Source: Fibrobacterota bacterium
Lineage (GTDB): Bacteria > Fibrobacterota > Fibrobacteria > UBA11236
Direction: 5' to 3'
Assembly: GCA_028287505.1 (NCBI GenBank)
Contig: JAQBPN010000007.1
Location: 116,120-148,119, forward strand
Length of the DNA: 32,000 nucleotides
Shown: positions 12,790 through 23,241 of the stretch, in pieces
Layout: each line of letters begins with the position of its first letter
Numbering within the stretch: position 1 is the stretch's first letter
Translations under genes and position numbers: made by a program
The notes under the pieces: model-generated
The model's database searches: none
Seen by the model: only the letters and a program-made list of their open reading frames with translations
What the model was told of the DNA's origin: nothing

Positions 12790-14733
12790 ATGCCGGCCGC
12801 AAGGCCGGAGGGAGGATCCCTGAATCGCACCGCTTTGATCGGATTCGCACTGCTCTCATGGGCATGGGACGCCCATTCCCAAGGCGCGTGGATCCGGCAG
12901 GATCCGCGGCCTGCGAATATGCAACTCAACGCCGCCGATTTCGTCGACTCCCGCCACGGCTGGGCTGTGGGGACGGGCGGAACCGTTCTCAGGACCACGG
13001 ACGGCGGGGATACCTGGACCCCGCAATGGTCCGACACGTCCTTCAGCGCCGTTTCCGTGGACTTCCTCAATCCGGACACGGGATGGATTTGCGGATTCCC
13101 GGCAACGATCCTCAAAACCACGGACGGAGGCGGTACGTGGACCGTGAAAAAATTGGGCGGAACCGGACCTCTGTACGCCATCCATTTTCACGATGCCCGG
13201 CTTGGCTGGACGACCGGTGAGGGCGGCTATATTTTCCGGACCCGGGACGGCGGGTCCACCTGGGACACCTGTCCCCGGGCGACGGAATGGAGCCTGAAAT
13301 CCATTCAATTCATAAACGCATCCAAAGGCTGGGCCATGGGGGAATACAGCTCCATCGTCACGACGGAGGATGGAGGAACGAGTTGGAAATCCTTGGGAAA
13401 GGTGGGAGAGTTCATCGCTGCGTCCCAGTTTCTGGATGCGGATACGGGATTCGCGGCCGGAACCACGGGAAATGTTTTCAAAACCGCAGACGGCGGCGTA
13501 TCGTGGATGCAATTGAATCCCCTGACCATAAAAGACCTTTTCGCGATCCATTTCGCGGATTCCCGGACCGGATGGGTGGCCGGACGGGCGGGCTGGATCA
13601 GCAAGACCGTGGATGGGGGGGCTACGTGGACGGCGCAGGATTCCCGCGTGCCCGTCACCCTCTACGCCATCCCGTTCGTGGGCAAAGACACCGGCTGGTT
13701 TGCGGGAGATAACGGCACTCTCGGCAAGACCACGGATGGGGGCGCCACGTGGACCTTTCCGCCCAACGCCGTCAAGAGGTCCCTGCGATCCGTCCACTTT
13801 ATCGATGCCGAAACGGGATGGGCCGCGGGAGACGCCGGCACCATCCTCGGCACCACGGACGGCGGACTGCACTGGTTGGATCGCAATCCGCCCACCCGGG
13901 AGGACTTCGGGGCCATCCATTTTCCGGACGCCAAGCATGGGTGGGCAGTGACGTTTTCGGGGTCGGTTTTCAAATCGGAGGACGGCGGGATCGGATGGAC
14001 GCTGCAGAAGAAATTGGGGAACAATCCCTTGGCCAGCGTGTGGTTCATCGATGATCGCAACGGATGGCTCGGCCGTGAACACGACTTCGTACGCAAAACC
14101 GAGGACGGAGGGGAAACTTGGATACCCCAGGATAGCGCCACCTTCGGCGCCGCAAGGATACGCTTCGCCGATGCCCTTCGGGGTTGGGCCTCGGACGGCA
14201 GGCGGCTGCTCCGGACCCGGGACGGCGGCAAAAACTGGGACAGCATCAGGACCACCGAGGCCCTCCGGGGATTCGCCATGGCGTCCGCTGATTCCCTGGT
14301 CGGCATCGGAAGCGGCTTTTTGGTCCATCGCACCTTCGACGGCGGAACCCATTGGTCGGCGGCGGACGTCCGTACGGAAGCGATGGGCTCCAATGCAGTG
14401 GCTTTCGCGAAATCGGGAGAGGTCTGGGGCGTGGGCATAGGCGGGGAAATCACCGGGTCCAAGGACGGCGGAGCGACCTGGACACGGGTGGGCGGCAAAG
14501 CCGACAAGGCCGATCTGCATGATGTATTCCTGTTGGACGGCGGCGGCGGATGGGCGGTGGGAGACAGTGGGGTCATCCTTAAATACGATGCCAACGCTCC
14601 CGCTTCCATAGCGACCGGAAAAAGCCCCCATGTGGATTACCGTAAGCGAAATAGATCGGCGACGACCATGCCCGGCCGCAAAATACCCTGGCTCTCCGGT
14701 TGGTTCGATTTCCTGGGACGCCGCAACCTTTAG
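12790..14733 (+). CDS. Secreted BNR/Ycf48-like (sortilin/GH74-type) tandem beta-propeller protein
   Basis: Signal peptide, then 13 evenly spaced copies of the motif [ST]x-DGGx[TS]W (TTDGGDTWT, TTDGGGTWT, TRDGGSTWD ... SKDGGATWT) about 43 aa apart, consistent with two 7-bladed propellers. The C-terminal tail is basic (RKRNRSATTMPGRKIPWLSGWFDFLGRRNL). Confidence 0.85.
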   Translation: MPAARPEGGSLNRTALIGFALLSWAWDAHSQGAWIRQDPRPANMQLNAADFVDSRHGWAVGTGGTVLRTTDGGDTWTPQWSDTSFSAVSVDFLNPDTGWICGFPATILKTTDGGGTWTVKKLGGTGPLYAIHFHDARLGWTTGEGGYIFRTRDGGSTWDTCPRATEWSLKSIQFINASKGWAMGEYSSIVTTEDGGTSWKSLGKVGEFIAASQFLDADTGFAAGTTGNVFKTADGGVSWMQLNPLTIKDLFAIHFADSRTGWVAGRAGWISKTVDGGATWTAQDSRVPVTLYAIPFVGKDTGWFAGDNGTLGKTTDGGATWTFPPNAVKRSLRSVHFIDAETGWAAGDAGTILGTTDGGLHWLDRNPPTREDFGAIHFPDAKHGWAVTFSGSVFKSEDGGIGWTLQKKLGNNPLASVWFIDDRNGWLGREHDFVRKTEDGGETWIPQDSATFGAARIRFADALRGWASDGRRLLRTRDGGKNWDSIRTTEALRGFAMASADSLVGIGSGFLVHRTFDGGTHWSAADVRTEAMGSNAVAFAKSGEVWGVGIGGEITGSKDGGATWTRVGGKADKADLHDVFLLDGGGGWAVGDSGVILKYDANAPASIATGKSPHVDYRKRNRSATTMPGRKIPWLSGWFDFLGRRNL

Positions 14734-14750: not shown

Positions 14751-15125
14751 ATGCGCGAAAAAACCATGCCGCCAAGACCGGTCCGCTCGCCATTTACAAA
14801 GCTGCTTTTAGCCCTCTTGAGAAAGATCCCCAAAGGCAAAGTGGCCTCCTATGGACAGATCGCGGCCCTGGCCGATCATCCGCGCGCCGCGCGCCAGGTG
14901 GTGCGCCTGTTGCATACTCTTTCCGAACGCGAGAACCTGCCCTGGCACCGGGTGGTCAACCGTAACGGGCATATTTCCCTTCCCATGGAAGGCGCAGGCG
15001 GCCTGCAACGTCGCCTATTGATCAAAGAAGGCGTAAAAGTGAACGCGCAAGGAGCGATGGATTTGGAACGGTTCGGATGGAAGCCGGAAATGAAGCCGCG
15101 CAAATCCGCGCTTCCTCGCGGGTAA
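14751..15125 (+). CDS. Alkyltransferase-like (ATL) protein: MGMT/Ogt DNA-binding domain with the active-site Cys replaced by Trp
   Basis: IPKGKVASYGQIAALADHPRAARQVV...LPWHRVVNRNGHISL. The canonical PCHRV is PWHRV here, as in the ATL family. The ORF track starts at TTG 14700, inside the upstream gene. ATG 14751 is preceded by GAGGA at 10-nt spacing. Confidence 0.8.
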   Translation: MREKTMPPRPVRSPFTKLLLALLRKIPKGKVASYGQIAALADHPRAARQVVRLLHTLSERENLPWHRVVNRNGHISLPMEGAGGLQRRLLIKEGVKVNAQGAMDLERFGWKPEMKPRKSALPRG

Positions 15126-15131
15126 AACCCA

Positions 15132-15806
15132 TTAATGGATTTTCAAAACGATGCGGCGGTTCTTGGCCTGATTGGATGAAATCGGCTTCCCGTCGCCGTC
15201 CACGTTGGGCACCTTGGGCTTGGTGTCCGCGTAGCCCGCCGCCTTGAGGCGCTCGGACGGAATGCCTTTTCCGATCAGGTACTTGACGATGTTGGTGGCG
15301 CGCGAAACCGAGAGTTCCCAGTTGGACGGGAACTGGAGGGTATTGATGGGAATGTTGTCCGTGTGGCCCTCGATGTCCACCGCGAACTTGTAATACTCGA
15401 TGCGTTGGATGGCATCGGCCACCTTGTCCATGTTCGCCCGCGCCGAGGGTCCGATATCCGCCTTGCCCGGATCGTAGATGGCCGAACTCGAGAATTCCAC
15501 GATGATGCCGTCGCGCCCCAGATCGATGTTCACTTCGCCGCGCTTCCGCTGATCCGCCAGGAGCGAATCCAGGTCGTGCTTGATTTCGCCCAGGGGCGTC
15601 TTCACGTCCTTGTCCTTGCCGATATCGCTGCGCAGGCCCTTCTTCATCTGTTCGAAGAGCACCGGATCCACATGGGAGACGGAAAGCATGGCCAGGAAAA
15701 AGGCCATCAGGAGCGTCACCATGTCGGCGTAGCTCATGAGCCAATCCTCTTCGACCCCTTCGTGTTCCGGGACGCGGTGGCGGTTGTGGTGTTTTCTGAT
15801 GCCCAT
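15132..15806 (-). CDS. motB: Flagellar-type stator protein MotB (OmpA-like peptidoglycan-binding C-terminus)
   Basis: WLMSYADMVTLLMAFFLAML carries the invariant channel Asp in the single TM helix. The C-terminus is OmpA-like (EGHTDNIP...SNWELSVSRATNIVKYL...AGYADTKP...NRRIVLKI). Confidence 0.9.
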   Translation of the reverse strand: MGIRKHHNRHRVPEHEGVEEDWLMSYADMVTLLMAFFLAMLSVSHVDPVLFEQMKKGLRSDIGKDKDVKTPLGEIKHDLDSLLADQRKRGEVNIDLGRDGIIVEFSSSAIYDPGKADIGPSARANMDKVADAIQRIEYYKFAVDIEGHTDNIPINTLQFPSNWELSVSRATNIVKYLIGKGIPSERLKAAGYADTKPKVPNVDGDGKPISSNQAKNRRIVLKIH

Positions 15807-15815
15807 GGAGAGCGC

Positions 15816-16625
15816 CTACTTGCCCTTCTTGGCGGCCCCGGGCTTGTCGCCGAACATCGAATACTGATCCTTGCGGTCCAGGTAGGAATTCATCTTGTCC
15901 TGGATGTACATGGCCGGCTTCTTTTCCATGATCAGGACCAGGGCCTCCAGGATCAGGTAATGGCGGAAGCGCTCGATGCTCAGGGTCTGCTTCACCTTGG
16001 TGGAGGAAGGCATGAATACGAAGCGGGCGAAGAGCAGGCCGTATAACGTGGCGGTCAGGGCCAGGGAAAGTCCCGGTCCCAGCTTGGACGGGTCTTCCAG
16101 CTTGCCCAGCATGACGATCAGTCCCAGCAGGGTGCCCACCAGGCCGAAAGCCGGAGTCATGGATCCCATGGAAGTCAGGATGGTGGATCCCTGCAGATGG
16201 CGGAAGTAATGTTCTTCGATGTTGGTGGTGCCGAACTCCCGGATGTCGTCCGGCTTGTAGCCCGTGCTGGCCAGGGTGAAGATGTACCTGGTGAATTCGT
16301 CCTTGCTGGACTTGGCGATGGAGTCGTAGCCATTCTGGCCCTCGGCCTGCACCTTCTTGGACCATTCGCCCGCGAGCCTCACATCCTGGATCAGGCTCTT
16401 GGAGGAGATATCCTGCTTGACGAATATCTTCAGGGTGGCCCTGAAGGCGTTCCACACGTATTGGAAGCGGAACCCGATGAAGGTAACCGTAACGGTACCC
16501 CCGAAGACGATGGCGAAGCTGCCCAGGCTCAGGAAAACCTGCCAGTCCTTGGTTTCATGGAGGATTCCCAGGGCTATGACCAGGAACCCGAAAACGACGC
16601 CGCATACCGTGGATAGGGAGATCAT
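15816..16625 (-). CDS. motA: Flagellar-type stator protein MotA/PomA (4-TM proton/sodium channel subunit)
   Basis: 269 aa with two N-terminal TM helices, a ~100-aa cytoplasmic loop, then MTPAFGLVGTLLGLIVML and LSLALTATLYGLLFARFVFMP (both conserved Pro present). Its ATG overlaps the upstream gene's TGA (ATGA at 16622-16625). Confidence 0.9.
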   Translation of the reverse strand: MISLSTVCGVVFGFLVIALGILHETKDWQVFLSLGSFAIVFGGTVTVTFIGFRFQYVWNAFRATLKIFVKQDISSKSLIQDVRLAGEWSKKVQAEGQNGYDSIAKSSKDEFTRYIFTLASTGYKPDDIREFGTTNIEEHYFRHLQGSTILTSMGSMTPAFGLVGTLLGLIVMLGKLEDPSKLGPGLSLALTATLYGLLFARFVFMPSSTKVKQTLSIERFRHYLILEALVLIMEKKPAMYIQDKMNSYLDRKDQYSMFGDKPGAAKKGK

Positions 16626-17914
16626 GGGGCCTTTTCCTCTTTGGCTGCCTTCGCATCCTTGGGCGCGCCGGACATCGCGTCTTTTGACGCGCCGGGGAGC
16701 GGGATCTTGGCCTTCTTCTCTTCCGGCTTGCTTTTGTCGGCGGCCTTGGCGGGAGAAGCGGGAGGGACGGGAGCAGCGGCCGGGGCGGGTGCCGGAACCG
16801 GCGTTGTGACCGGAGCCGGGGCGGGCGTCTCCGCGGCGTCCGCTTCGGGGGCCGCTTCGTTTTCGGCGGCGGGAGCGGCGGCGGGTTCAGGCTCCGGAGC
16901 CGGGGGCGCGGCGGGGCGCGCCTGGGTGGGCTTGGCCAGATGGGTCGCGCGCTGGACCGGAGCGGCGGCCTCCGGGATCGGTGCCGCGACCGGTGCGCCG
17001 GCGGAGGAGGCCGGAGCCGCGTTCAACTGTCCGTTGTATTCCTCCGGGAAGGGAACCTGGTCCGCCTCGGGCAATGCGGCCGCGGAAGGGCGCGGAGCGG
17101 GGCGGGGCATGATGGGGCGGGGATTGGGCGATCCCCGGCCGCCCGGAGTGCGGGTCTTCTCGAGCATGTTGACCACGGCGGGCATGTCGGGATTGAGGCG
17201 CAGGGCTTCCATCCATTCGCGCCGCGCCATGCCGCCCTGTCCCATCATGTAGTGGATGCTGCCCGCCAAGGCGTGGCCTTCCGCGGTGGAACGCGCATCC
17301 AGGGAGGATCGGACGGCCTGCATGGCCTCCGGGAAGCGCTTCTGGTAGAAAAGCTCCTGGGCCTTGCGGATGCCCGTCAGTACCTTGGAGGTTACGTCCT
17401 CGTAGTCTCCCTGTTCCTCTTCGGCGGGCGGCGTTTCGGGTTTGGCGCGGGCGCGCGGATCCTGCGGTTGCTGGTGTTGCGCCGGTGGCTGACGCAAGGC
17501 ATTCCGCTGCGGGTCCGGATCCGGTTGGGCCTGCCCGTCCTGATCCTCCTGGGAAGGCGGCCTGGGTTCCGGATTGGCCGCTTTCGCCCGCTGGGCGGCA
17601 TGATGCTCTTCCGGTTCGCGGGCGGCGTGCTTGGCTTCTTCCGAGGGAGGCGGATTCGGCTTTCCGGTCATTTCCAGGTACAGATCCGTGGACCCCAGAT
17701 CGATGGTCACGTTGGCATCGGTGCTTTTGTTCGCGTAATGGAAACTGATGCTGCCTTGGCCGTTTTCGCCCGGTTCGGTTTCCGGCCCGGCCTGGGACTG
17801 GGAGGGAGCGGAACTCCTGACGTCGGGATCGGGGGCGCTTCCACCGCAACCAAGCAGGAGCATTGCGGCCATGACGGCCGAAGCCGCCGCGCGCGCGGAT
17901 GCCTCGGCCGTCAT
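16622..17914 (-). CDS. Lipoprotein with a single TPR pair embedded in long Pro/Ala/Glu/Gln-rich disordered regions
   Basis: Preferred start is ATG 17914, giving MTAEASARAAASAVMAAMLLLGCGGS (lipobox LLGC). The ORF-track start at 17971 is TTG and would overlap the upstream gene. The TPR-like core is AQELFYQKRFPEAMQAVRSSLDARSTAEGHALAGSIHYMMGQGGMARREWMEALRLNPDMP. The C-terminal ~170 aa are PAPAPA/KAK low complexity. Confidence 0.75.
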   Translation of the reverse strand: MTAEASARAAASAVMAAMLLLGCGGSAPDPDVRSSAPSQSQAGPETEPGENGQGSISFHYANKSTDANVTIDLGSTDLYLEMTGKPNPPPSEEAKHAAREPEEHHAAQRAKAANPEPRPPSQEDQDGQAQPDPDPQRNALRQPPAQHQQPQDPRARAKPETPPAEEEQGDYEDVTSKVLTGIRKAQELFYQKRFPEAMQAVRSSLDARSTAEGHALAGSIHYMMGQGGMARREWMEALRLNPDMPAVVNMLEKTRTPGGRGSPNPRPIMPRPAPRPSAAALPEADQVPFPEEYNGQLNAAPASSAGAPVAAPIPEAAAPVQRATHLAKPTQARPAAPPAPEPEPAAAPAAENEAAPEADAAETPAPAPVTTPVPAPAPAAAPVPPASPAKAADKSKPEEKKAKIPLPGASKDAMSGAPKDAKAAKEEKAP

Positions 17915-17933
17915 GGCCGCCCGCGACCGCGGC

Positions 17934-19088
17934 TTAGAACGTGTAATGCAGATAGGTGAGTTCATAGGCAACGGGTTCCAGGGTCAGGAAACGATTTTCT
18001 TCATCGGCGCCGAGACCTTTCAGTTTGTTGTTGAGGGGCATGAAAAGAATGCCTCCGCCCAAGGTGAAATGGCGGCTGACGCGCGACTTGTAACCCACCG
18101 TGAGCGTGCTGAGATGCCCGCGATTGTTGAAAGGGACGAACTCCTTGTAACCCACGTATGTTCCGAGCCAGTAGCCCAGATCGGGATTGGATTTCCGGAA
18201 GAAAATCCCCAGCATCTCGATGCCGAAATTCACCATCTGGATGTTGAAGTTGACCGCCAGGCTGTCCGGCCCGCCCGTGCCGTTGGCGAAACCGTACCCG
18301 AGGGAAACGGAGAAGAGCAGGAACTTGTCCGGGGTGACCGCTTCGCTGACCGTGCCTTCGATTCCGTACATGGTGAGGGCCAGGTTGGAGAGGGTGTCCA
18401 GTTTGGGGCGGCCGAGCGAATCGGAGGCGACCGCGCTGGGGACGATGCCTTCCTGGATGGGGAAGCGGGTCACGTTGGCGGAGGCGCTCCAATCCAGGTT
18501 CCAGATGTCCGGCTTCTTCTCGTTGGGTCCGGCCACGAAGCTGTTCGACCAGACGATTTCGCCCGTGCGGTGGCGGAACACCTTCAGGTTCAGGATCACG
18601 TCGTTGTCCGCGCTTTTGGAACAGGAGCCTTCGATATAGCCGTCCACGCGGAGCTTGTCCCCCAGCTTCCAGAGATCTTCCATGGACGGCAGGGTGTTGG
18701 AGAACTTGAAGGTGCTGTCGGTGGCCACCACGCGGAAAGTCCGGAGTTCCGGGGACGTGACCACGGTCTTGCGGCCTTCCTTGCGGAACACCTCTTCGAT
18801 CTGGGCCTGGATGTAGCGCGAAATGCCGGGGCTGAATTCCTTGGGATCCACTTTGATCTGGGACAGGGCGATGCGATCGATGTTGGGAGGGATGTCGCCC
18901 ATGGTCTTGGACAGGCGCCCCATGATCTCCGCTATCTGGCGGAGGCCGGTGGAACTGGGCGCGAAGGGATCCGGCGAAGACGCGGCCGCGGAAGCGGACG
19001 GCGCGCACATGGCCAGGCATAAGGCCAGGCACATGCCCATGATCGGGGCCGGGAGGAAACCGGCCCTGTTCGCGGAGCCGGAAATCAT
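17934..19088 (-). CDS. Predicted outer-membrane protein: periplasmic N-domain plus C-terminal beta-barrel
   Basis: Signal peptide (MGMCLALCLAMCAPSASA). The C-terminal half has alternating amphipathic beta-strand patterning and ends in an aromatic residue (...YELTYLHYTF), as is typical of OMP barrels. The N-domain pattern (IALSQIKVD...ISRYIQAQIEEVF...GDKLRVDGYIEGSC...VILNLKVFRHRTGEIVWS) resembles the small periplasmic modules of CsgG/FlgO/LpoB-type proteins, by pattern only. Its ATG overlaps the TGA of the upstream gene (ATGA at 19085-19088). Confidence 0.7.
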   Translation of the reverse strand: MISGSANRAGFLPAPIMGMCLALCLAMCAPSASAAASSPDPFAPSSTGLRQIAEIMGRLSKTMGDIPPNIDRIALSQIKVDPKEFSPGISRYIQAQIEEVFRKEGRKTVVTSPELRTFRVVATDSTFKFSNTLPSMEDLWKLGDKLRVDGYIEGSCSKSADNDVILNLKVFRHRTGEIVWSNSFVAGPNEKKPDIWNLDWSASANVTRFPIQEGIVPSAVASDSLGRPKLDTLSNLALTMYGIEGTVSEAVTPDKFLLFSVSLGYGFANGTGGPDSLAVNFNIQMVNFGIEMLGIFFRKSNPDLGYWLGTYVGYKEFVPFNNRGHLSTLTVGYKSRVSRHFTLGGGILFMPLNNKLKGLGADEENRFLTLEPVAYELTYLHYTF

Positions 19089-20941
19089 ACCGGCCTCCCC
19101 GAATGCTTGATTTCGTCGCGGATCCTGTGGAGGAGGCGGCGTTGCGCGGCCTCGGACTCCTTGGGCGTGGCGTCCTTGGAGCCTTCCATGCCCCCGGACA
19201 CCATCATCTGCATGCGTTCCGGCAGCAGGGAAAGGACTTTGGCGCGGATGGGCGCTTCCACGTGGAGGAGGGCCAGGATGAGGGTCTCCTGATCCAGACC
19301 CTGGAGGACGGTGCCCAGGAACTTGTCGGGCAGTCCGACCACTTCCGGCAGGGTAACGTACCGGTTACGTAATTTCTCGCCCAGGCCCAGATCCATTTCG
19401 GAGATGGAGTGGATGTACTGGAACTGCATGTTGAGGGGCAGGCTGTCGATCAATTCCAGGATGCTGTCCACGCCGTCGGCGGCCACGTAGCGCATGTTGC
19501 CCACGTCCAGGGCCTTGAGGGACAGCCGGTCCGCGATTTCCTTGTACACGGTGACCGGGATATGATCGATGTTCCCCATGGCGATCAGGAGCTTGGCCCG
19601 GTTGTCGGGATCCGTTTTCTGCAGGATGCCGCCGGCGACTTCGCCCGGCAATTGCGCCAGCACCAGGCCCACTATCCCCAGGGATTCGTCGCGCAGGATG
19701 TGCATGATCTGCTGTTCGTTCATCTGCAGCAGGAACCCGAACATGTCCTTGTATTGGTCTTCGTCCATGTGGCCGTTGGCCAGGTTCTGGTACTCGCGCT
19801 TGAATTCCTTGTACACGGTGAGCATGTCTTCGGAGGTGGGCGTCTCCCCCGCGTTCATGTGCATTTCCAGCTTTTGCGCGATATCGCGCCCGAGTTCGGG
19901 GGCGATCACGCCCATCAGGCGCGCGTCCAGGCTGGCGATCATGGCGGCGGAGTCGCGCATGCCCTTGTCGGGGTCGCGCTGGATCCAGCTCTTGATGATC
20001 TGGCCGCAATGTTTGGGGCTGCCCACGAAGCAGTTCAGCAGAAAGGGGCGGAAGGCGCCGAGTTCGGAAGGCTGGCCCTTGCCCGCGTCCGCCTTGCGGG
20101 CCGCGGACTCCCTGGGAGGCTCGGGCGCGGGAACGGGGGCGGGCGGATACTTGTCGTTCCGTTCGCCGCGGGACGAACCCATGATGGCCCGCGAGACCAT
20201 CCACACGCAGGCGAGGATAAGCAGGCAGATGATGACCAGGGGAATCAGGGAGGGAAGATGGTCGGTATAGTTGCCGAAGGGATTGGCGGCGGCCTTGTCC
20301 CTGGCATCCTCTTTCTTGGAGGCCGTGTCGTTCTTGGCCGGGGCCTGGGCGGCCGGCATGGGAGGAGGATCCACCGGCTTGCGGTAGTTGGTCAGGGAAC
20401 GGTTGTCGCGCGGGAACACGCCTTCGTGGACGGAGACTCGGTCACCCCGCGGCTCGTCCAGGCGCGTGGCCATGGTCAGCAGATTGCGGATGAACTCCAC
20501 GTCCTTCTGGGAGTATCCGGTATCCACCAGGATGTCCAGGGTAACCGCCTGGATACCCCCGGGATTGCGCGCCGCATCGTCGGCGGAGGGAACCGGAGCG
20601 GAGGGCTGTACGGTTTCCGGCAGGAAAGGAAGTCCCGGCAATTGCTGGGGCATTTCGCCCGAAACGGCGGCGGGGTCGTCCCCGCCCAGTTCCATTTCCG
20701 GCGGCGGTTCCATTTCGACTTTGGCTTTGACGAGATAGGTCGATTCTTCGTAATAGCGCGCGAGCGTGCGCGAGGCGATGTTCTCGTAGTATTGGGCCAG
20801 CTTCGCGGCCTGGTCCAGGGGCGGCCTGGCGCCGGCCATGGAGGGCTGGGCGGTCGCGTGGGCCGCCATCCCCAGAACCAGGGACAGACTTGAGATTTTA
20901 CAGGCGATGGACATGGCAATGCTGATTATACAACCCGGCAT
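19085..20941 (-). CDS. Bitopic inner-membrane protein: FliF/YscJ-like periplasmic ring-building segment + TM + two cytoplasmic FliG-like (FliG_M/FliG_C, MgtE-N-like) repeats
   Basis: N-terminal signal/anchor (MSIACKISSLSLVLGMAAHATAQ). The periplasmic segment AVTLDILVDTGYSQKDVEFIRNLLTMATRLDEPRGDRVSVHEG resembles the FliF/YscJ block (xSVxLxL...xxxQVxxIxxLVxxAVxGLxxxxVTVVD). The TM helix is LPSLIPLVIICLLILACVWMV. The cytoplasmic FliG-type repeats are FGFLLQMNEQQIMHILRDESLGIVGLVLAQLPGEVAGGILQKTDPDNRAKLL and LPDKFLGTVLQGLDQETLILALLHVEAPIRAKVLSLLPERMQMMV...SEAAQRRLLHRIRDEI. The start may be ATG 20941 or ATG 20914. Confidence 0.75.
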   Translation of the reverse strand: MPGCIISIAMSIACKISSLSLVLGMAAHATAQPSMAGARPPLDQAAKLAQYYENIASRTLARYYEESTYLVKAKVEMEPPPEMELGGDDPAAVSGEMPQQLPGLPFLPETVQPSAPVPSADDAARNPGGIQAVTLDILVDTGYSQKDVEFIRNLLTMATRLDEPRGDRVSVHEGVFPRDNRSLTNYRKPVDPPPMPAAQAPAKNDTASKKEDARDKAAANPFGNYTDHLPSLIPLVIICLLILACVWMVSRAIMGSSRGERNDKYPPAPVPAPEPPRESAARKADAGKGQPSELGAFRPFLLNCFVGSPKHCGQIIKSWIQRDPDKGMRDSAAMIASLDARLMGVIAPELGRDIAQKLEMHMNAGETPTSEDMLTVYKEFKREYQNLANGHMDEDQYKDMFGFLLQMNEQQIMHILRDESLGIVGLVLAQLPGEVAGGILQKTDPDNRAKLLIAMGNIDHIPVTVYKEIADRLSLKALDVGNMRYVAADGVDSILELIDSLPLNMQFQYIHSISEMDLGLGEKLRNRYVTLPEVVGLPDKFLGTVLQGLDQETLILALLHVEAPIRAKVLSLLPERMQMMVSGGMEGSKDATPKESEAAQRRLLHRIRDEIKHSGRPV

Positions 20942-21085
20942 TTGGGGAGACTACGGATTTTCAGTTTGCCCCGGAAAGGACAAAGCTTGATAAAAGCTTA
21001 AAGTTCTACGGATGATTTACCGATAACTTCCGGATGAACCGGCGGCCATGCGAAGGCACGGCCGGGCCGGGAGAAGGGATTGGAC

Positions 21086-22789
21086 ATGTCGATAGGGTTT
21101 CGCCTCGCGATATTCGGCGCCCTCGCCTTGTGCGCATGCGATGACGGCACCGTCCATGTCGTCCGTTTCCCTTCCGGAAAAATCCGCGAAATGTGGACGG
21201 AGAAAGGCCCCAATCCCAAGGCCACCGTGCGCGAGGGTCTCTTCCAATCCTTTTTCCCGGACGGAAGCCGTTCCAGCGCCGTGGAATACCGCGGCGGCGG
21301 CAAGAACGGAAGCGCCAGCATGTGGGATGCCGGGGGCCGGCTCCGATTCAAGGGCGAATACAAAGACGACTTTCTGGTGCGGGAGATCCGTTACGACACG
21401 TCGGGAAAGGTGTCCGCGGATCGCCGTTTCTCCGTCAAAACCGATCGGGTCAAAGCCATCGGCTCTTCCGGGGACTCCCTGACGGTCCCGGAAACCTGCG
21501 CCTGGTCGGAGGCCGCCGGCCGGCCGCCCCTCAAGGACGGCCTTTGCACCATGAAGTATGCGGACGGGAAGGTCATGGCCACGCGCTATTACCAATCCGG
21601 AAGGCTGAACGGCCCCGTAAAGGCCTGGTACCGGGACGGCACGCCCTGGATGGACGGTTCCTACGCGAATGCCATCCCCGCGGGCAGATGGCGCACCTGG
21701 ACCCCCGGCGGAAACCCGCTCTGGTCGGCCGCGTACGACAAAGGAGAACGGGAAGGGGCCTGGGAGGAATGGTTCCCGGACGGCGGTCCGAAATCGAAAT
21801 CAGCCTACCGGAAAGGCAAAGCGGAAGGGGGGTATCAGGAATGGTACCCCAGCGGCAAACCCCGCCTGCGCGGGCAATTCCTGGCGGGGCGCCGGGAAGG
21901 CCAGGAAGCGGCATGGTATCCCGACGGCGCCCGCCTGTATTCCGCCCGTTACGCGGGCGGCCAACTGGAAGGGGATTTCTACCAATGGCACCCGGGCGGC
22001 AAACTGCGCCTGCATTGCCGGTTCGCCAAGGGAAAGAAAGAAGGGGGCAGCCGGGTATGGTATCCCACGGGCGTATTGCAGGAGCAGGCCTATTACAAGG
22101 CGGGGCGCCTGAACGGCTCCTATCGCACCTGGTCCGCGGAGGGCGCGCCCATGGCCATGAAGGAATTCCGCGACGGAGCCGTGGCATTCGACTCCAAGGC
22201 GAAGGAGCTCCTGGATCTCCTGGGGGCGGATCAACTGCGCGTGCCCGTGGGCATGATGGGATTCTACTGGGGCATGGGCGCCAAGGAATGCCGCGCCAAC
22301 CTGGGCCTGTACCAGGCCTCGGACGTGCATGCGAACGACGAGGGGATCACCGCGAAGATGATCGCCTTCCCGGATCGCCGCCCCACCCAGGCGCAAATCC
22401 GGCTCTCGTTCAACGGCCAAGGCGAACTATGGGGCATCAAATTGGATTTGCTCCAGCAATCGTCCGGGGACTTCTTCCCTTTGTGCGAGAACCTGGAAAT
22501 CGAAATCGGCGCGGAATTGGGAACGGCGGGACTGCGCAAGGCGGAAGGCGCATCGGATTACAGCATGACGCGGAAAAGGGATTGGGGGAAGTTCACGGTG
22601 ACCACGGGAACGGCCGGGGGCATCCAACAGGACCTGCCGGTCCTGAGCGCGGAAGGATTCAGCCCCGCCGCCAAGGGGTGGTTCCGCTTTTCCCTGGCCA
22701 ACCACCTCTATCGCGAATACGTGAATCCCGCCAACGCATCCATCACGCCTCCGCGTTGGCAGGAAGAGACCTTCCTCGCCGGACGCTGA
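21086..22789 (+). CDS. MORN-variant (YwqK/COG2849-like) repeat lipoprotein with an uncharacterised C-terminal domain
   Basis: MSIGFRLAIFGALALCACDDG is a lipoprotein-type signal. About 10 repeats of the Gx(E/N)GxxxxWxPxGxxxxxxxY type follow (GEREGAWEEWFPDGGPKSKSAYRKGKAEGGYQEWYPSGKPRLRGQF...). The last ~200 aa have no motif I recognise. GGGAGAAGGG lies upstream of ATG 21086; the ORF track starts at TTG 21080. Confidence 0.75.
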   Translation: MSIGFRLAIFGALALCACDDGTVHVVRFPSGKIREMWTEKGPNPKATVREGLFQSFFPDGSRSSAVEYRGGGKNGSASMWDAGGRLRFKGEYKDDFLVREIRYDTSGKVSADRRFSVKTDRVKAIGSSGDSLTVPETCAWSEAAGRPPLKDGLCTMKYADGKVMATRYYQSGRLNGPVKAWYRDGTPWMDGSYANAIPAGRWRTWTPGGNPLWSAAYDKGEREGAWEEWFPDGGPKSKSAYRKGKAEGGYQEWYPSGKPRLRGQFLAGRREGQEAAWYPDGARLYSARYAGGQLEGDFYQWHPGGKLRLHCRFAKGKKEGGSRVWYPTGVLQEQAYYKAGRLNGSYRTWSAEGAPMAMKEFRDGAVAFDSKAKELLDLLGADQLRVPVGMMGFYWGMGAKECRANLGLYQASDVHANDEGITAKMIAFPDRRPTQAQIRLSFNGQGELWGIKLDLLQQSSGDFFPLCENLEIEIGAELGTAGLRKAEGASDYSMTRKRDWGKFTVTTGTAGGIQQDLPVLSAEGFSPAAKGWFRFSLANHLYREYVNPANASITPPRWQEETFLAGR

Positions 22790-22807: not shown

Positions 22808-23125
22808 TCAGCGGCTGAGCTGCTTGAGCGTTTTCTGCAGAGCCGTAATCTGCTTCTTGAAGGACTTCAAAGCGACCATGGCGGCGTGCACGCTCTTCAG
22901 CTTGCGGCCGTCGAGGCCCTTGGCGGCGGCGCGTCCGGGCTTGCGGCCGCCGGTTTCGCCGTTCATCCAGCGACGCAACGCAATATAGGAAACGCCGAAT
23001 TTCTTTCCCGCCGCGGAGATGCCGCCGCGGCCCTGGCTGTTCACGAATTCGAGGATCTTCTTTTTCTGATCATCGGTATAGCGCTTGCCTGTATTGCCTT
23101 TTTTCCTCGTCTTAGCCAAAGCCAT
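22808..23125 (-). CDS. Small HTH DNA-binding protein resembling IS3-type transposase OrfA (HTH + C-terminal leucine-zipper-like helix), with no adjacent catalytic ORF
   Basis: MALAKTRKKGNTGKRYTDDQKKKILEFVNSQGRGGISAAGKKFGVSYIALRRWMNG, then LKSVHAAMVALKSFKKQITALQKTLKQL. GGGAGAGG lies immediately upstream of ATG 23125; the ORF track starts at TTG 23167. Confidence 0.65.
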   Translation of the reverse strand: MALAKTRKKGNTGKRYTDDQKKKILEFVNSQGRGGISAAGKKFGVSYIALRRWMNGETGGRKPGRAAAKGLDGRKLKSVHAAMVALKSFKKQITALQKTLKQLSR

Positions 23126-23241
23126 GTCCTCTCCCGGGGGTATTATGCCTCTCTGAAGAGAAGGCAAAAGTAATAATGATTTAATTTAAATAAAGAAACG
23201 GCTTTAGCAAAATTAATAGTGGGGAAAATTAACAGATTTCC

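Follow-up and report, generated by a model that had tools for sequence, protein, structure and literature searches.

Introduction

To our knowledge, every FliF/FliG rotor and MotAB stator that has been studied exists only within a flagellum. The two rotor proteins have been joined by engineering: FliF-FliG fusions of Salmonella assemble MS-rings and support rotation (Francis 1992; Thomas 2001), and a fusion of the Vibrio proteins not only forms MS-rings, as engineered fusions do, but even favours their assembly (PMC11481574). A single natural fusion of the two proteins has been published so far, from the Chlamydiaceae, where a shortened FliF is joined to FliG sequence in hosts without flagella (Bergeron 2016, PMC4768692). 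Here, we analyzed a stretch of 32,000 nucleotides from a Fibrobacterota bacterium (contig JAQBPN010000007.1, positions 116,120 to 148,119; hereafter the window), in which a gene on the minus strand (19085..20941) encodes a fusion of a FliF-type periplasmic domain, a transmembrane (TM) helix and FliG. An initial annotation, made from the DNA letters of the window, had proposed that this gene is a natural fusion of FliF and FliG; both halves were assigned as it proposed, with the FliF part limited to the third ring-building motif (RBM3), TM2 and the C-terminal tail. The fusion protein descends from FliF and FliG, joined head to tail, and we consider it likely, with a probability of roughly 60%, that it is the rotor subunit of a compact rotor-stator machine independent of the flagellum.

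The protein is like the engineered Salmonella and Vibrio fusions in that the C-terminus of FliF is joined to the N-terminus of FliG (PMC11481574). The engineered fusions, however, contain the whole of FliF (~560-580 amino acids (aa)) and operate in a complete flagellum, whereas the natural protein totals ~600 aa and keeps the distal third of FliF only. The chlamydial fusion, as judged from its description alone, is set apart by its size (~330 aa), its two TM helices, an RBM2-like region with one further RBM, a FliG part that is FliG_M-like only, the absence of a link to motAB and a proposed interaction with the injectisome. Its architecture has nothing in common with that of the present protein beyond the joining of FliF to FliG. 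Compared with the flagellar rotor core, the locus has in common an RBM3 of αββαβ topology with an insert between strands 1 and 2, a TM2-like helix, a segment that may correspond to the C-terminal helix of FliF, predicted N, M and C domains of FliG, an invariant equivalent of Arg281, a stator of the MotA/PomA type and a MotB with plug, channel Asp and OmpA anchor. Unlike the flagellar core, it combines the two rotor proteins in a single polypeptide and has a predicted signal peptide in place of TM1, no RBM1 or RBM2, no EHPQR motif, no Asp288/289-Arg90 pair on either partner in the Fibrobacterota clade and, in the surrounding sequence, no genes for an export gate, rod, hook, filament or switch; its partners are an outer membrane (OM) barrel/TolB-N-like protein and a tetratricopeptide repeat (TPR) lipoprotein. 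We found no description of the fusion family or of its operon in the literature searched, which yielded only canonical motors, engineered fusions and the Chlamydia case.

The fusion protein is membrane-anchored and carries FliG on its cytoplasmic side

The longest open reading frame (ORF) of the gene, taken from the ORF list of the window, has 618 codons, on which residues are numbered here. It matches at 100% identity an NCBI copy (P0001) of 609 aa, entitled 'FliG-like protein [Fibrobacteres bacterium]', which assigns the window to a metagenome-assembled genome of the Fibrobacterota. Because this 609-aa copy and most homologues begin near Met10 of the 618-aa ORF, the true start is probably Met10 at 20914, giving a protein of 609 aa. 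By hydropathy analysis, the protein has no hydrophobic stretches other than aa 3-27 and aa 225-257. The first ends in AHATA/QP, an AxA-type cleavage site, and homologues show a conserved 'AQ' after the hydrophobic core; the N-terminal region (aa 1-31, 20849..20941, minus strand, cleavage motif AHATA/Q) thus looks like a cleavable Sec-type signal peptide. The second contains a single TM helix (aa 229-249, 20195..20257, minus strand) with the core LPSLIPLVIICLLILACVWMV, equivalent to FliF TM2 as judged by hydropathy and by an alignment to FliF that starts at residue 465. The mature protein would therefore be single-pass, with ~197 residues in the periplasm and ~369 in the cytoplasm, close to the ~215 and ~350 residues around one TM helix first estimated. 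The same estimate had opened the protein with a signal or anchor sequence, and the sequence looks like the former rather than the latter. Flexible linkers of ~50 aa lie on each side of the TM helix, and Pro-rich, TonB/TolA-like spacers occur in the linker sequence.

The cytoplasmic half was analyzed with Pfam models and with a profile built from 36 family members and searched against PDB. Pfam FliG_M (PF14841) matches aa 410-482 (19496..19714, minus strand) with E 7e-13 and 49.1 bits, above its gathering score of 25, and Pfam FliG_C (PF01706) matches aa 512-610 (19112..19408, minus strand) with E 5e-14 and 52.9 bits, above its gathering score of 23.3. The FliG_N model (PF14842) falls just below its gathering score of 25, with E 9.5e-5 and 23.4 bits, over a FliG_N-like domain at aa 327-397 (19751..19963, minus strand); the profile alignment covers the same domain, and the family profile matches the FliG_N structure 5tdy_B with E 0.006. 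The 36-member profile retrieved T. maritima FliG (1lkv, E 3.2e-27) and 1qc7 (E 1e-12), with 4fhr also matched over the C-terminal domain, and it aligned residues 6-319 of Salmonella FliG to aa 328-616 with E 8.5e-21, spanning the N, M and C domains. The NCBIfam FliG model TIGR00207 gives 7.7e-21 and 74.8 bits, far under its equivalog cut-off of 226.7. Taken together, these alignments predict that the N, M and C domains of FliG are all present in the cytoplasmic half of a protein which, unlike the soluble FliG of ~330 aa, measures ~600 aa and is membrane-anchored. The two repeats with a FliG/MgtE-N pattern that had been noticed by eye correspond to FliG_M and FliG_C. The MgtE_N model (PF03448) was rejected as an assignment of these repeats: it reaches only E 0.014 and 16.4 bits for a gathering score of 25.9, and its match overlaps the far stronger one of FliG_M.

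The FliM-binding motif EHPQR is lost in the fusion family. Only its Glu is kept (E419, in 41 of 42 members); the H, P and Q columns have become S, D/L and E/G, and the Arg160 column holds K or A.

The periplasmic half resembles the RBM3 domain of FliF

An AlphaFold (AF2) monomer model of aa 32-228 was obtained from an alignment of 42 sequences. Its core has a predicted local distance difference test (pLDDT) score above 90 and follows the order helix, strand, insert (~50 residues, at low confidence), strand, helix, strand, which is the αββαβ topology of a ring-building motif; the block AVTLDILVDTGYSQKDVEFIRNLLTMATRLDEPRGDRVSV makes its β-α-β half. This is also the arrangement of FliF RBM3 (α1/β1/collar/β6/α2/β7), in which the β-collar lies between strands 1 and 2 (PMC11481574). 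When the model was compared with PDB by Foldseek, the best 17 matches were all FliF RBM3/β-collar structures (E 5e-5 to 4e-4), with PrgK lower in the list. At the sequence level, the block AVTLDILVDTGYSQKDVEFIRNLLTMATRLDEPRGDRVSV weakly matches Pfam YscJ_FliF_C (PF08345), with E 0.0021 in the whole protein and 3.5e-4 for the isolated domain, and 34 of the 42 family members scanned singly match the same model weakly, the best with E 2.7e-5 and below the gathering score. Searched by itself against PDB sequences with a hidden Markov model (HMM) profile, the periplasmic domain gave nothing at E<=10, so that the RBM3 assignment is carried by the fold and the Pfam evidence. The model thus supports a single FliF RBM3-type ring-building domain at aa 42-173 (20423..20818, minus strand; α1-β1-[insert]-β2-α2-β3). 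The resemblance of this block to the FliF/YscJ motif was among the first proposals made for the gene, together with a comparison of each half by itself, and this comparison leads the periplasmic half to FliF RBM3 and the cytoplasmic half to FliG.

The insert between β1 and β2 (aa 78-129, 20555..20710, minus strand), a low-confidence loop of the model, occupies the place that the β-collar has in FliF. It is shorter, with ~52 aa (32-57 in the family) versus ~90 aa for the collar of Vibrio FliF, and it holds a nearly invariant LPGLP (aa 101-105, nucleotides 20627-20641) in which L101, G103 and P105 are invariant. In the Balneolaceae, sequence resembling a β-hairpin is found on either side of LPGLP, and the insert of these bacteria looks like a miniature collar. 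An invariant RGD (aa 165-167), followed by a conserved FPR(D), was also seen in the loop before the last RBM3-like strand (20423-20500, minus strand); it may lie at a ring interface.

RBM1 and RBM2 were searched for with the SctJ-homology model (PF01514), which gave no match in the protein, and the periplasmic region of ~197 aa has room for one RBM. The two-TM architecture of FliF is not found either: one internal TM helix follows a signal-peptide-like N-terminus, and TM1 is absent. The FliF portion that is kept thus consists of RBM3, TM2 and the C-terminal tail, with TM1, RBM1 and RBM2 absent.

A FliF-like tail is followed directly by the start of FliG

When PDB was searched with a profile of aa 120-332, Salmonella FliF came first (E 0.0045). 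In the alignment, the TM helix, the linker and the pattern '..SPK..IIKSWI..D' fall on residues 465-560 of Salmonella FliF, which ends '...DPRVVALVIRQWMSNDHE'. The conserved segment RPFLLNCFVGSPKHCGQIIKSWIQRDPDKG (aa 296-326, 19964..20056, minus strand), in which W319 is invariant, pairs with the final ~20 residues of Salmonella FliF, and in this respect it is like the FliG-binding C-terminal helix of FliF. A 41-aa profile of this putative helix alone retrieved no FliF from PDB, only YtnJ/MoxC at chance level (E 0.24). The homology with FliG starts right after the FliF-like segment, aa 328 corresponding to residue 6 of Salmonella FliG. The junction, with modest significance, looks like a FliF C-terminus joined head-to-tail to a FliG N-terminus, and this co-linearity of a FliF tail and a FliG start is the trace that fliF and fliG fused in full frame would be expected to leave.

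The fusion gene belongs to an operon with motA, motB and two envelope proteins

The fusion gene is followed on the same strand, with overlaps of 4 nucleotides or short gaps, by genes for a 384-aa secreted protein (17934..19088), a TPR lipoprotein (16622..17971), MotA (15816..16625) and MotB (15132..15806). The start of the 384-aa gene overlaps the stop of the fusion gene by 4 nucleotides. The fusion had first been described as lying next to motAB; it does share a tightly packed operon with these genes, but motAB are two genes downstream and not immediately adjacent. The fusion gene is co-transcribed and co-inherited with MotA/MotB, the 384-aa protein and the TPR lipoprotein.

The MotA/PomA-type stator A subunit has 269 aa and contains the MotA_ExbB channel domain (PF01618, 3e-22); its hydrophobic segments fit a four-TM architecture, and its best NCBIfam matches are MotP, PomA and MotA (1e-36 to 3e-40, under the equivalog cut-offs). 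The MotB-type B subunit (224 aa) contains a plug (MotB_plug, 9e-17) and an OmpA-like peptidoglycan-binding domain (2e-16), and its best NCBIfam models are MotD/MotB, also under the equivalog cut-offs. Alignment with E. coli MotB places its channel residue Asp28, which is invariant, at E. coli Asp32. The hypothesis of a Zorya (ZorAB) or other defence system was discarded, PADLOC reporting only a generic similarity of ZorB to MotB, no ZorA and nothing else.

The 384-aa protein has no match in Pfam or NCBIfam, and a 20-sequence profile of it found no PDB sequence. In its AF2 model (pLDDT 79), a periplasmic α/β domain of the TolB-N/LpoB/GNA1162/PelC/FlgT type (aa ~49-186) is combined with a small OmpA/OmpW-like OM β-barrel that ends ...HYTF, that is, with an aromatic last residue. 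Foldseek matched the model to TolB (E 1.8e-6), LpoB (4q6z, TMt 0.69), OmpA (1bxw) and FlgT (3w1e). All homologues have a signal peptide, and the gene is syntenic in all loci.

The TPR protein has a lipobox (LLLGC), a match to TPR_2 (E 0.001) and a likely start at Met20 (17914). The invariant Cys and a conserved TPR unit were found in four homologues, and the gene is syntenic. In the window, this lipoprotein also has a Pro/Ala-rich C-terminal tail of ~170 aa (16622-17149) and a Pro/Gln-rich insert (~17400-17600, minus strand), extensions that are absent from the ~205-280-aa homologues of other lineages and that look like TonB/TolA-style spacers spanning the periplasm.

The 384-aa protein and the TPR lipoprotein also recall the rings that surround the Vibrio motor. 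The periplasmic fold of the former is like that of the H/T-ring protein FlgT (3w1e, E 1.8e-3; LPHT ring chain 8z5n, E 5e-4). Among the stator scaffolds of Vibrio, MotX is Sel1/TPR-like and contacts PomB, and the TPR lipoprotein is reminiscent of it. Unlike FlgT, FlgO, FlgP, MotX and MotY, with which the likeness is at the fold level and sequence homology is undetected, the 384-aa protein has an OM β-barrel of its own.

Charges at the predicted stator-rotor interface vary together

The torque-helix segment (aa 574-592, PERMQMMVSGGMEGSKDAT, 19166..19222, minus strand) was compared with known FliG proteins by a MAFFT alignment of E. coli FliG with 42 family members and by an HMM alignment to T. 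maritima FliG. R576, the equivalent of E. coli Arg281, is invariant (42/42), as is P574. In the window protein, Asp288/Asp289 correspond to G583/G584, Arg297 to T592, and K264 to L. Both alignments give the picture obtained by eye in the initial annotation, with Arg281 kept and Asp288-Asp289 and Arg297 lost. Across the family, the Asp288 column is never acidic and the Arg297 column is not basic, and in the Asp289 column the 25 loci of the Balneolaceae type have Glu, the 10 of the Fibrobacterota type Gly or Ser.

The Arg90 column of the MotA encoded in the cassette follows this split exactly, with Arg/Lys in the 25 loci and Gly in the 10. Thus, the Asp289-type acid of FliG and the Arg90-type base of MotA are both present in 25 loci, both absent in 10 and mixed in none, a perfect pairing that runs along the clades. 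The Glu98 column of MotA holds Glu in most of the 25 loci and Ala, Ser or Gln in the 10, with an acid three residues earlier. The MotA of the window has Gly at Arg90, Ala at Glu98 and Asp three residues before the latter, and so is without both canonical charges; that MotA has Gly at Arg90 in the very clade whose FliG is without the Asp288/289 acids bears out the different stator interface suspected from the torque helix. The paired charges would fit a direct contact of the flagellar kind between MotA and FliG_C.

The cassette is conserved in several lineages and is under purifying selection

Direct homologues of the fusion protein number 98, all of ~600 aa. An exhaustive profile search gave 233 representatives at E<=1e-30, and the best ~150 of these, each standing for one 50%-identity cluster, are nearly all full-length proteins of 580-740 aa. 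A scan of species-representative genomes retrieved 40 loci, from metagenome-assembled genomes of Fibrobacteria and from Balneolaceae, with Gracilimonas tropica DSM 19535 (L027) and Balneola sp. EhC07 as cultured carriers. In L001-L044, the order fusion, 384-aa protein, TPR lipoprotein, MotA and MotB was observed in every locus with enough sequence. On two distant contigs, L046 (4484-9677) and L047 (4564-9854), the five genes are permuted (384-like, TPR, MotA, MotB, fusion), and the retention of the gene set despite this permutation is strong evidence that the five genes work together. L047 also has a neighbouring gene with a Por_Secre_tail domain of the type IX secretion system (T9SS), suggesting that its host belongs to the Bacteroidota. 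The cassette is thus conserved in Fibrobacterota, Balneolaceae and Bacteroidota-like contigs. In comparisons with three relatives, the ratio of non-synonymous to synonymous substitution rates (dN/dS) was 0.05-0.26 in each of the five genes, all of which are under purifying selection.

Databases name the homologues 'flagellar motor switch protein FliG', 'FliG', 'FliG-like' or hypothetical. No flagellar gene was found in the 32-kb window nor in the annotated flanks of ±8-10 kb at seven other loci, and no export-gate, rod, hook, filament or FliM/FliN gene accompanies the cassette in these same regions. Gracilimonas tropica is described as non-motile (PMC5167729) and is reported without flagellar-assembly genes (PMC9909488). 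Some Balneolaceae genera do have flagellar genes, and the genus Balneola is reported without flagellar-assembly genes (PMC9909488); the cassette was found in Balneola genomes, at loci L021, L028-L032, L036 and L038-L041. Balneola vulgaris is described as motile and flagellated (PMC5167729), a discrepancy with the absence of flagellar genes given for Balneola in PMC9909488, the supplement of which holds no per-genome tables of flagellar genes. In a comment of the latter study, the ancestor of the Balneolaceae may have been flagellated and the trait lost gradually (PMC9909488).

Other features around the cassette

A hairpin resembling a terminator (15098..15111, minus strand) lies just past motB and is a possible end of the operon; the consensus scan that found it is weak, with 5 sites found for 7.4 expected by chance. 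A promoter scan at the operon gave nothing above chance. A Metallophos (calcineurin-like phosphoesterase) gene is the next gene upstream of the cassette in the Fibrobacterota loci L001 (8774-9931) and L002 (1074-2216), and lies within 1 kb upstream of it in L047 (2407-3657), with one SecG gene between. No Metallophos gene lies beside the cassette in the window, and the association may be a coincidence or point to a sixth cassette gene.

Just past the end of the operon, a gene on the plus strand (12790-14733) encodes a 647-aa secreted protein with about eight BNR/Ycf48-like (PSII_BNR) repeats, for which no link with the cassette was seen in other loci. Divergent from the upstream region of the operon is a gene for a MORN_2-repeat protein (21080-22789, plus strand), adjoined by a small transposase-like HTH_28/HTH_Tnp_1 ORF (22808-23167, minus strand). 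Finally, an ORF of 494 aa runs antisense to the fusion gene (19409-20893, plus strand), and a further shadow ORF (19365-20204, minus strand) and many others occur in the window; such long ORFs on other frames and strands are the expected by-product of a G+C content of ~62% and not genes.

Discussion

Homology with FliF and FliG, linkage to motAB, selection on the five genes and loss of the switch-binding site are established by the data, and a rotor-stator module independent of the flagellum is the explanation that they support best; that engineered FliF-FliG fusions assemble MS-rings makes it plausible (PMC11481574). If the fusion protein is a rotor subunit, its RBM3 domains would form a periplasmic ring of some tens of subunits, as FliF does with ~33-35, and this ring would hold an equal number of FliG domains as a ring beneath the membrane. 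Ion flow through a peptidoglycan-anchored MotA5B2 would turn MotA against the torque helix of FliG_C, where the invariant Arg576 would face an acidic residue of MotA, and the entire ring would rotate in the inner membrane. Without a switch complex, the ring would probably be unidirectional or regulated otherwise. Via the LPGLP collar or the Pro-rich tethers, the periplasmic ring could engage the TPR lipoprotein and the 384-aa protein anchored in the OM, and the work would be passed to the outer membrane or the cell surface, with surface movement, envelope maintenance and secretion as candidate outputs.

A broader form of this proposal is a stand-alone rotary engine in which the ring of RBM3::FliG and MotAB, free of secretion apparatus, rod, hook, filament and switch, is coupled to the outer membrane through the 384-aa and TPR proteins for envelope or surface work in non-flagellated Fibrobacterota, Balneolota and Bacteroidota. 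We propose it tentatively, at slightly less than even odds. The data point to such an engine in the cell envelope as one not described before. If real, the engine would have come from a flagellum by radical reduction or, less probably, would survive as a relative of a 'motor first' stage that preceded the flagellum.

Several observations weigh against a rotor. The linkers of ~50 aa that flank the TM helix are odd for a protein that should transmit torque; the linker between TM2 and the C-tail of FliF is disordered too. The RBM3 assignment comes from a monomer model and sub-threshold sequence matches, with TM-scores of ~0.4, the insert being unstructured in the monomer, and with OsmC/Ohr folds among the weaker Foldseek matches. 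The charge co-variation between FliG and MotA follows the split into two clades, and so amounts to roughly one evolutionary event, and the interface predicted for the window organism, with its MotA charges gone, differs from that of every studied motor. Two divergent loci, L045 (7034-10597) and L048 (3930-7650), encode the fusion and the TPR protein with no motAB in the fetched flanks; their stator may be encoded elsewhere, or they may represent a different sub-type. The absence of flagellar genes refers, for the source organism, to the 32 kb of the window. Lastly, we infer that the fusion forms rings and rotates, and likewise that it contacts the 384-aa and TPR proteins. As to the two divergent loci, one of them is labelled Deltaproteobacteria RIFOXYA12, and a PilZ gene was seen just upstream in L045.

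The main rival of the rotor-stator machine is a non-rotating energiser of the envelope, comparable to Tol-Pal or TonB. In such a device, MotAB would be recruited and activated by the fusion protein, acting as a scaffold that stays static or moves only transiently, and pulling or conformational work would reach the TolB-N-like OM protein and the TPR lipoprotein for OM tethering, division or uptake. Among the 5:2 ion-driven envelope motors of the FCB group and its relatives, GldLM/PorLM of T9SS gliding, Tol-Pal and AglRQS-Glt do associate a MotAB-family energiser with TPR, OM barrel or lipoprotein partners across the periplasm. These systems have no FliG/FliF-like ring, and their stators belong to the TolQ/ExbB/GldL branches, unlike the stator of the cassette, which scores best with the flagellar MotP/PomA/MotA. 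The best folds of the 384-aa protein are TolB and LpoB and its TPR partner recalls CpoB/YbgF of Tol-Pal, but the stator encoded beside them, which has a MotB plug, belongs with flagellar MotA/PomA and not with TolQR/ExbBD. The Pro-rich, TonB/TolA-like spacers in the linker of the fusion and in the TPR protein suggest that the periplasm is spanned, yet the fusion also carries the whole of FliG, in which the torque-helix Arg is invariant, and a motif known solely for closed rings. Finally, the canonical MotA charges are gone in the Fibrobacterota clade, whereas both canonical charge pairs are kept in the Balneolaceae. On balance, we consider an energiser of this kind unlikely.

Far less probable is that the protein serves an ordinary flagellum, as a substitute or additional rotor subunit, with the remaining flagellar genes elsewhere in the genome. 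The name 'flagellar motor switch protein FliG' given to homologues in databases would suit this role, but the FliM-binding EHPQR is absent, as are RBM1 and RBM2, the part of FliF in which the export gate is housed. Flagellar genes do occur in some Balneolaceae genera (PMC9909488) and Balneola vulgaris is described as flagellated (PMC5167729), but no locus has adjoining flagellar genes in the window or the annotated flanks examined, and the cassette is present in G. tropica, reported without motility or flagellar-assembly genes.

A fusion of the chlamydial kind, associated with a T3SS (type III secretion system) and serving secretion instead of a motor, is highly improbable: the sole published natural fusion is indeed proposed to work with the injectisome (PMC4768692), but the window and flanks contain no T3SS genes, the partner genes are motAB, and RBM3 with a full FliG is found here versus an RBM2-like region with FliG_M only in Chlamydia. 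That the cassette is a decaying, functionless remnant of a lost flagellum, as a perhaps flagellated Balneolaceae ancestor with gradual loss of the trait might suggest (PMC9909488), has a similarly slight probability and is essentially refuted already by purifying selection (dN/dS 0.05-0.26); against it also stand the invariant motifs, the intact ORFs in >40 loci of two phyla, the survival of the five-gene set through permutation of its order and the full architecture in at least ~150 clusters at 50% identity.

Should the fusion protein prove to be the rotor of a machine independent of the flagellum, the core of the flagellar motor would be usable for more than turning a filament. One rotor protein with MotAB would offer a minimal system for structural and single-molecule work on torque, and the family would provide natural variants of the charge interface, with one clade having both classical pairs and the other lacking one pair on both partners. 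Two carriers, G. tropica DSM 19535 and Balneola sp. EhC07, are cultured, which makes the idea directly testable. For genome-based predictions of flagellar motility, the 'FliG' labels on genes of the cassette can be misleading. Finally, such a machine would bear on the origins of the flagellum, namely on whether a rotor and stator can function before or without a type III export apparatus.

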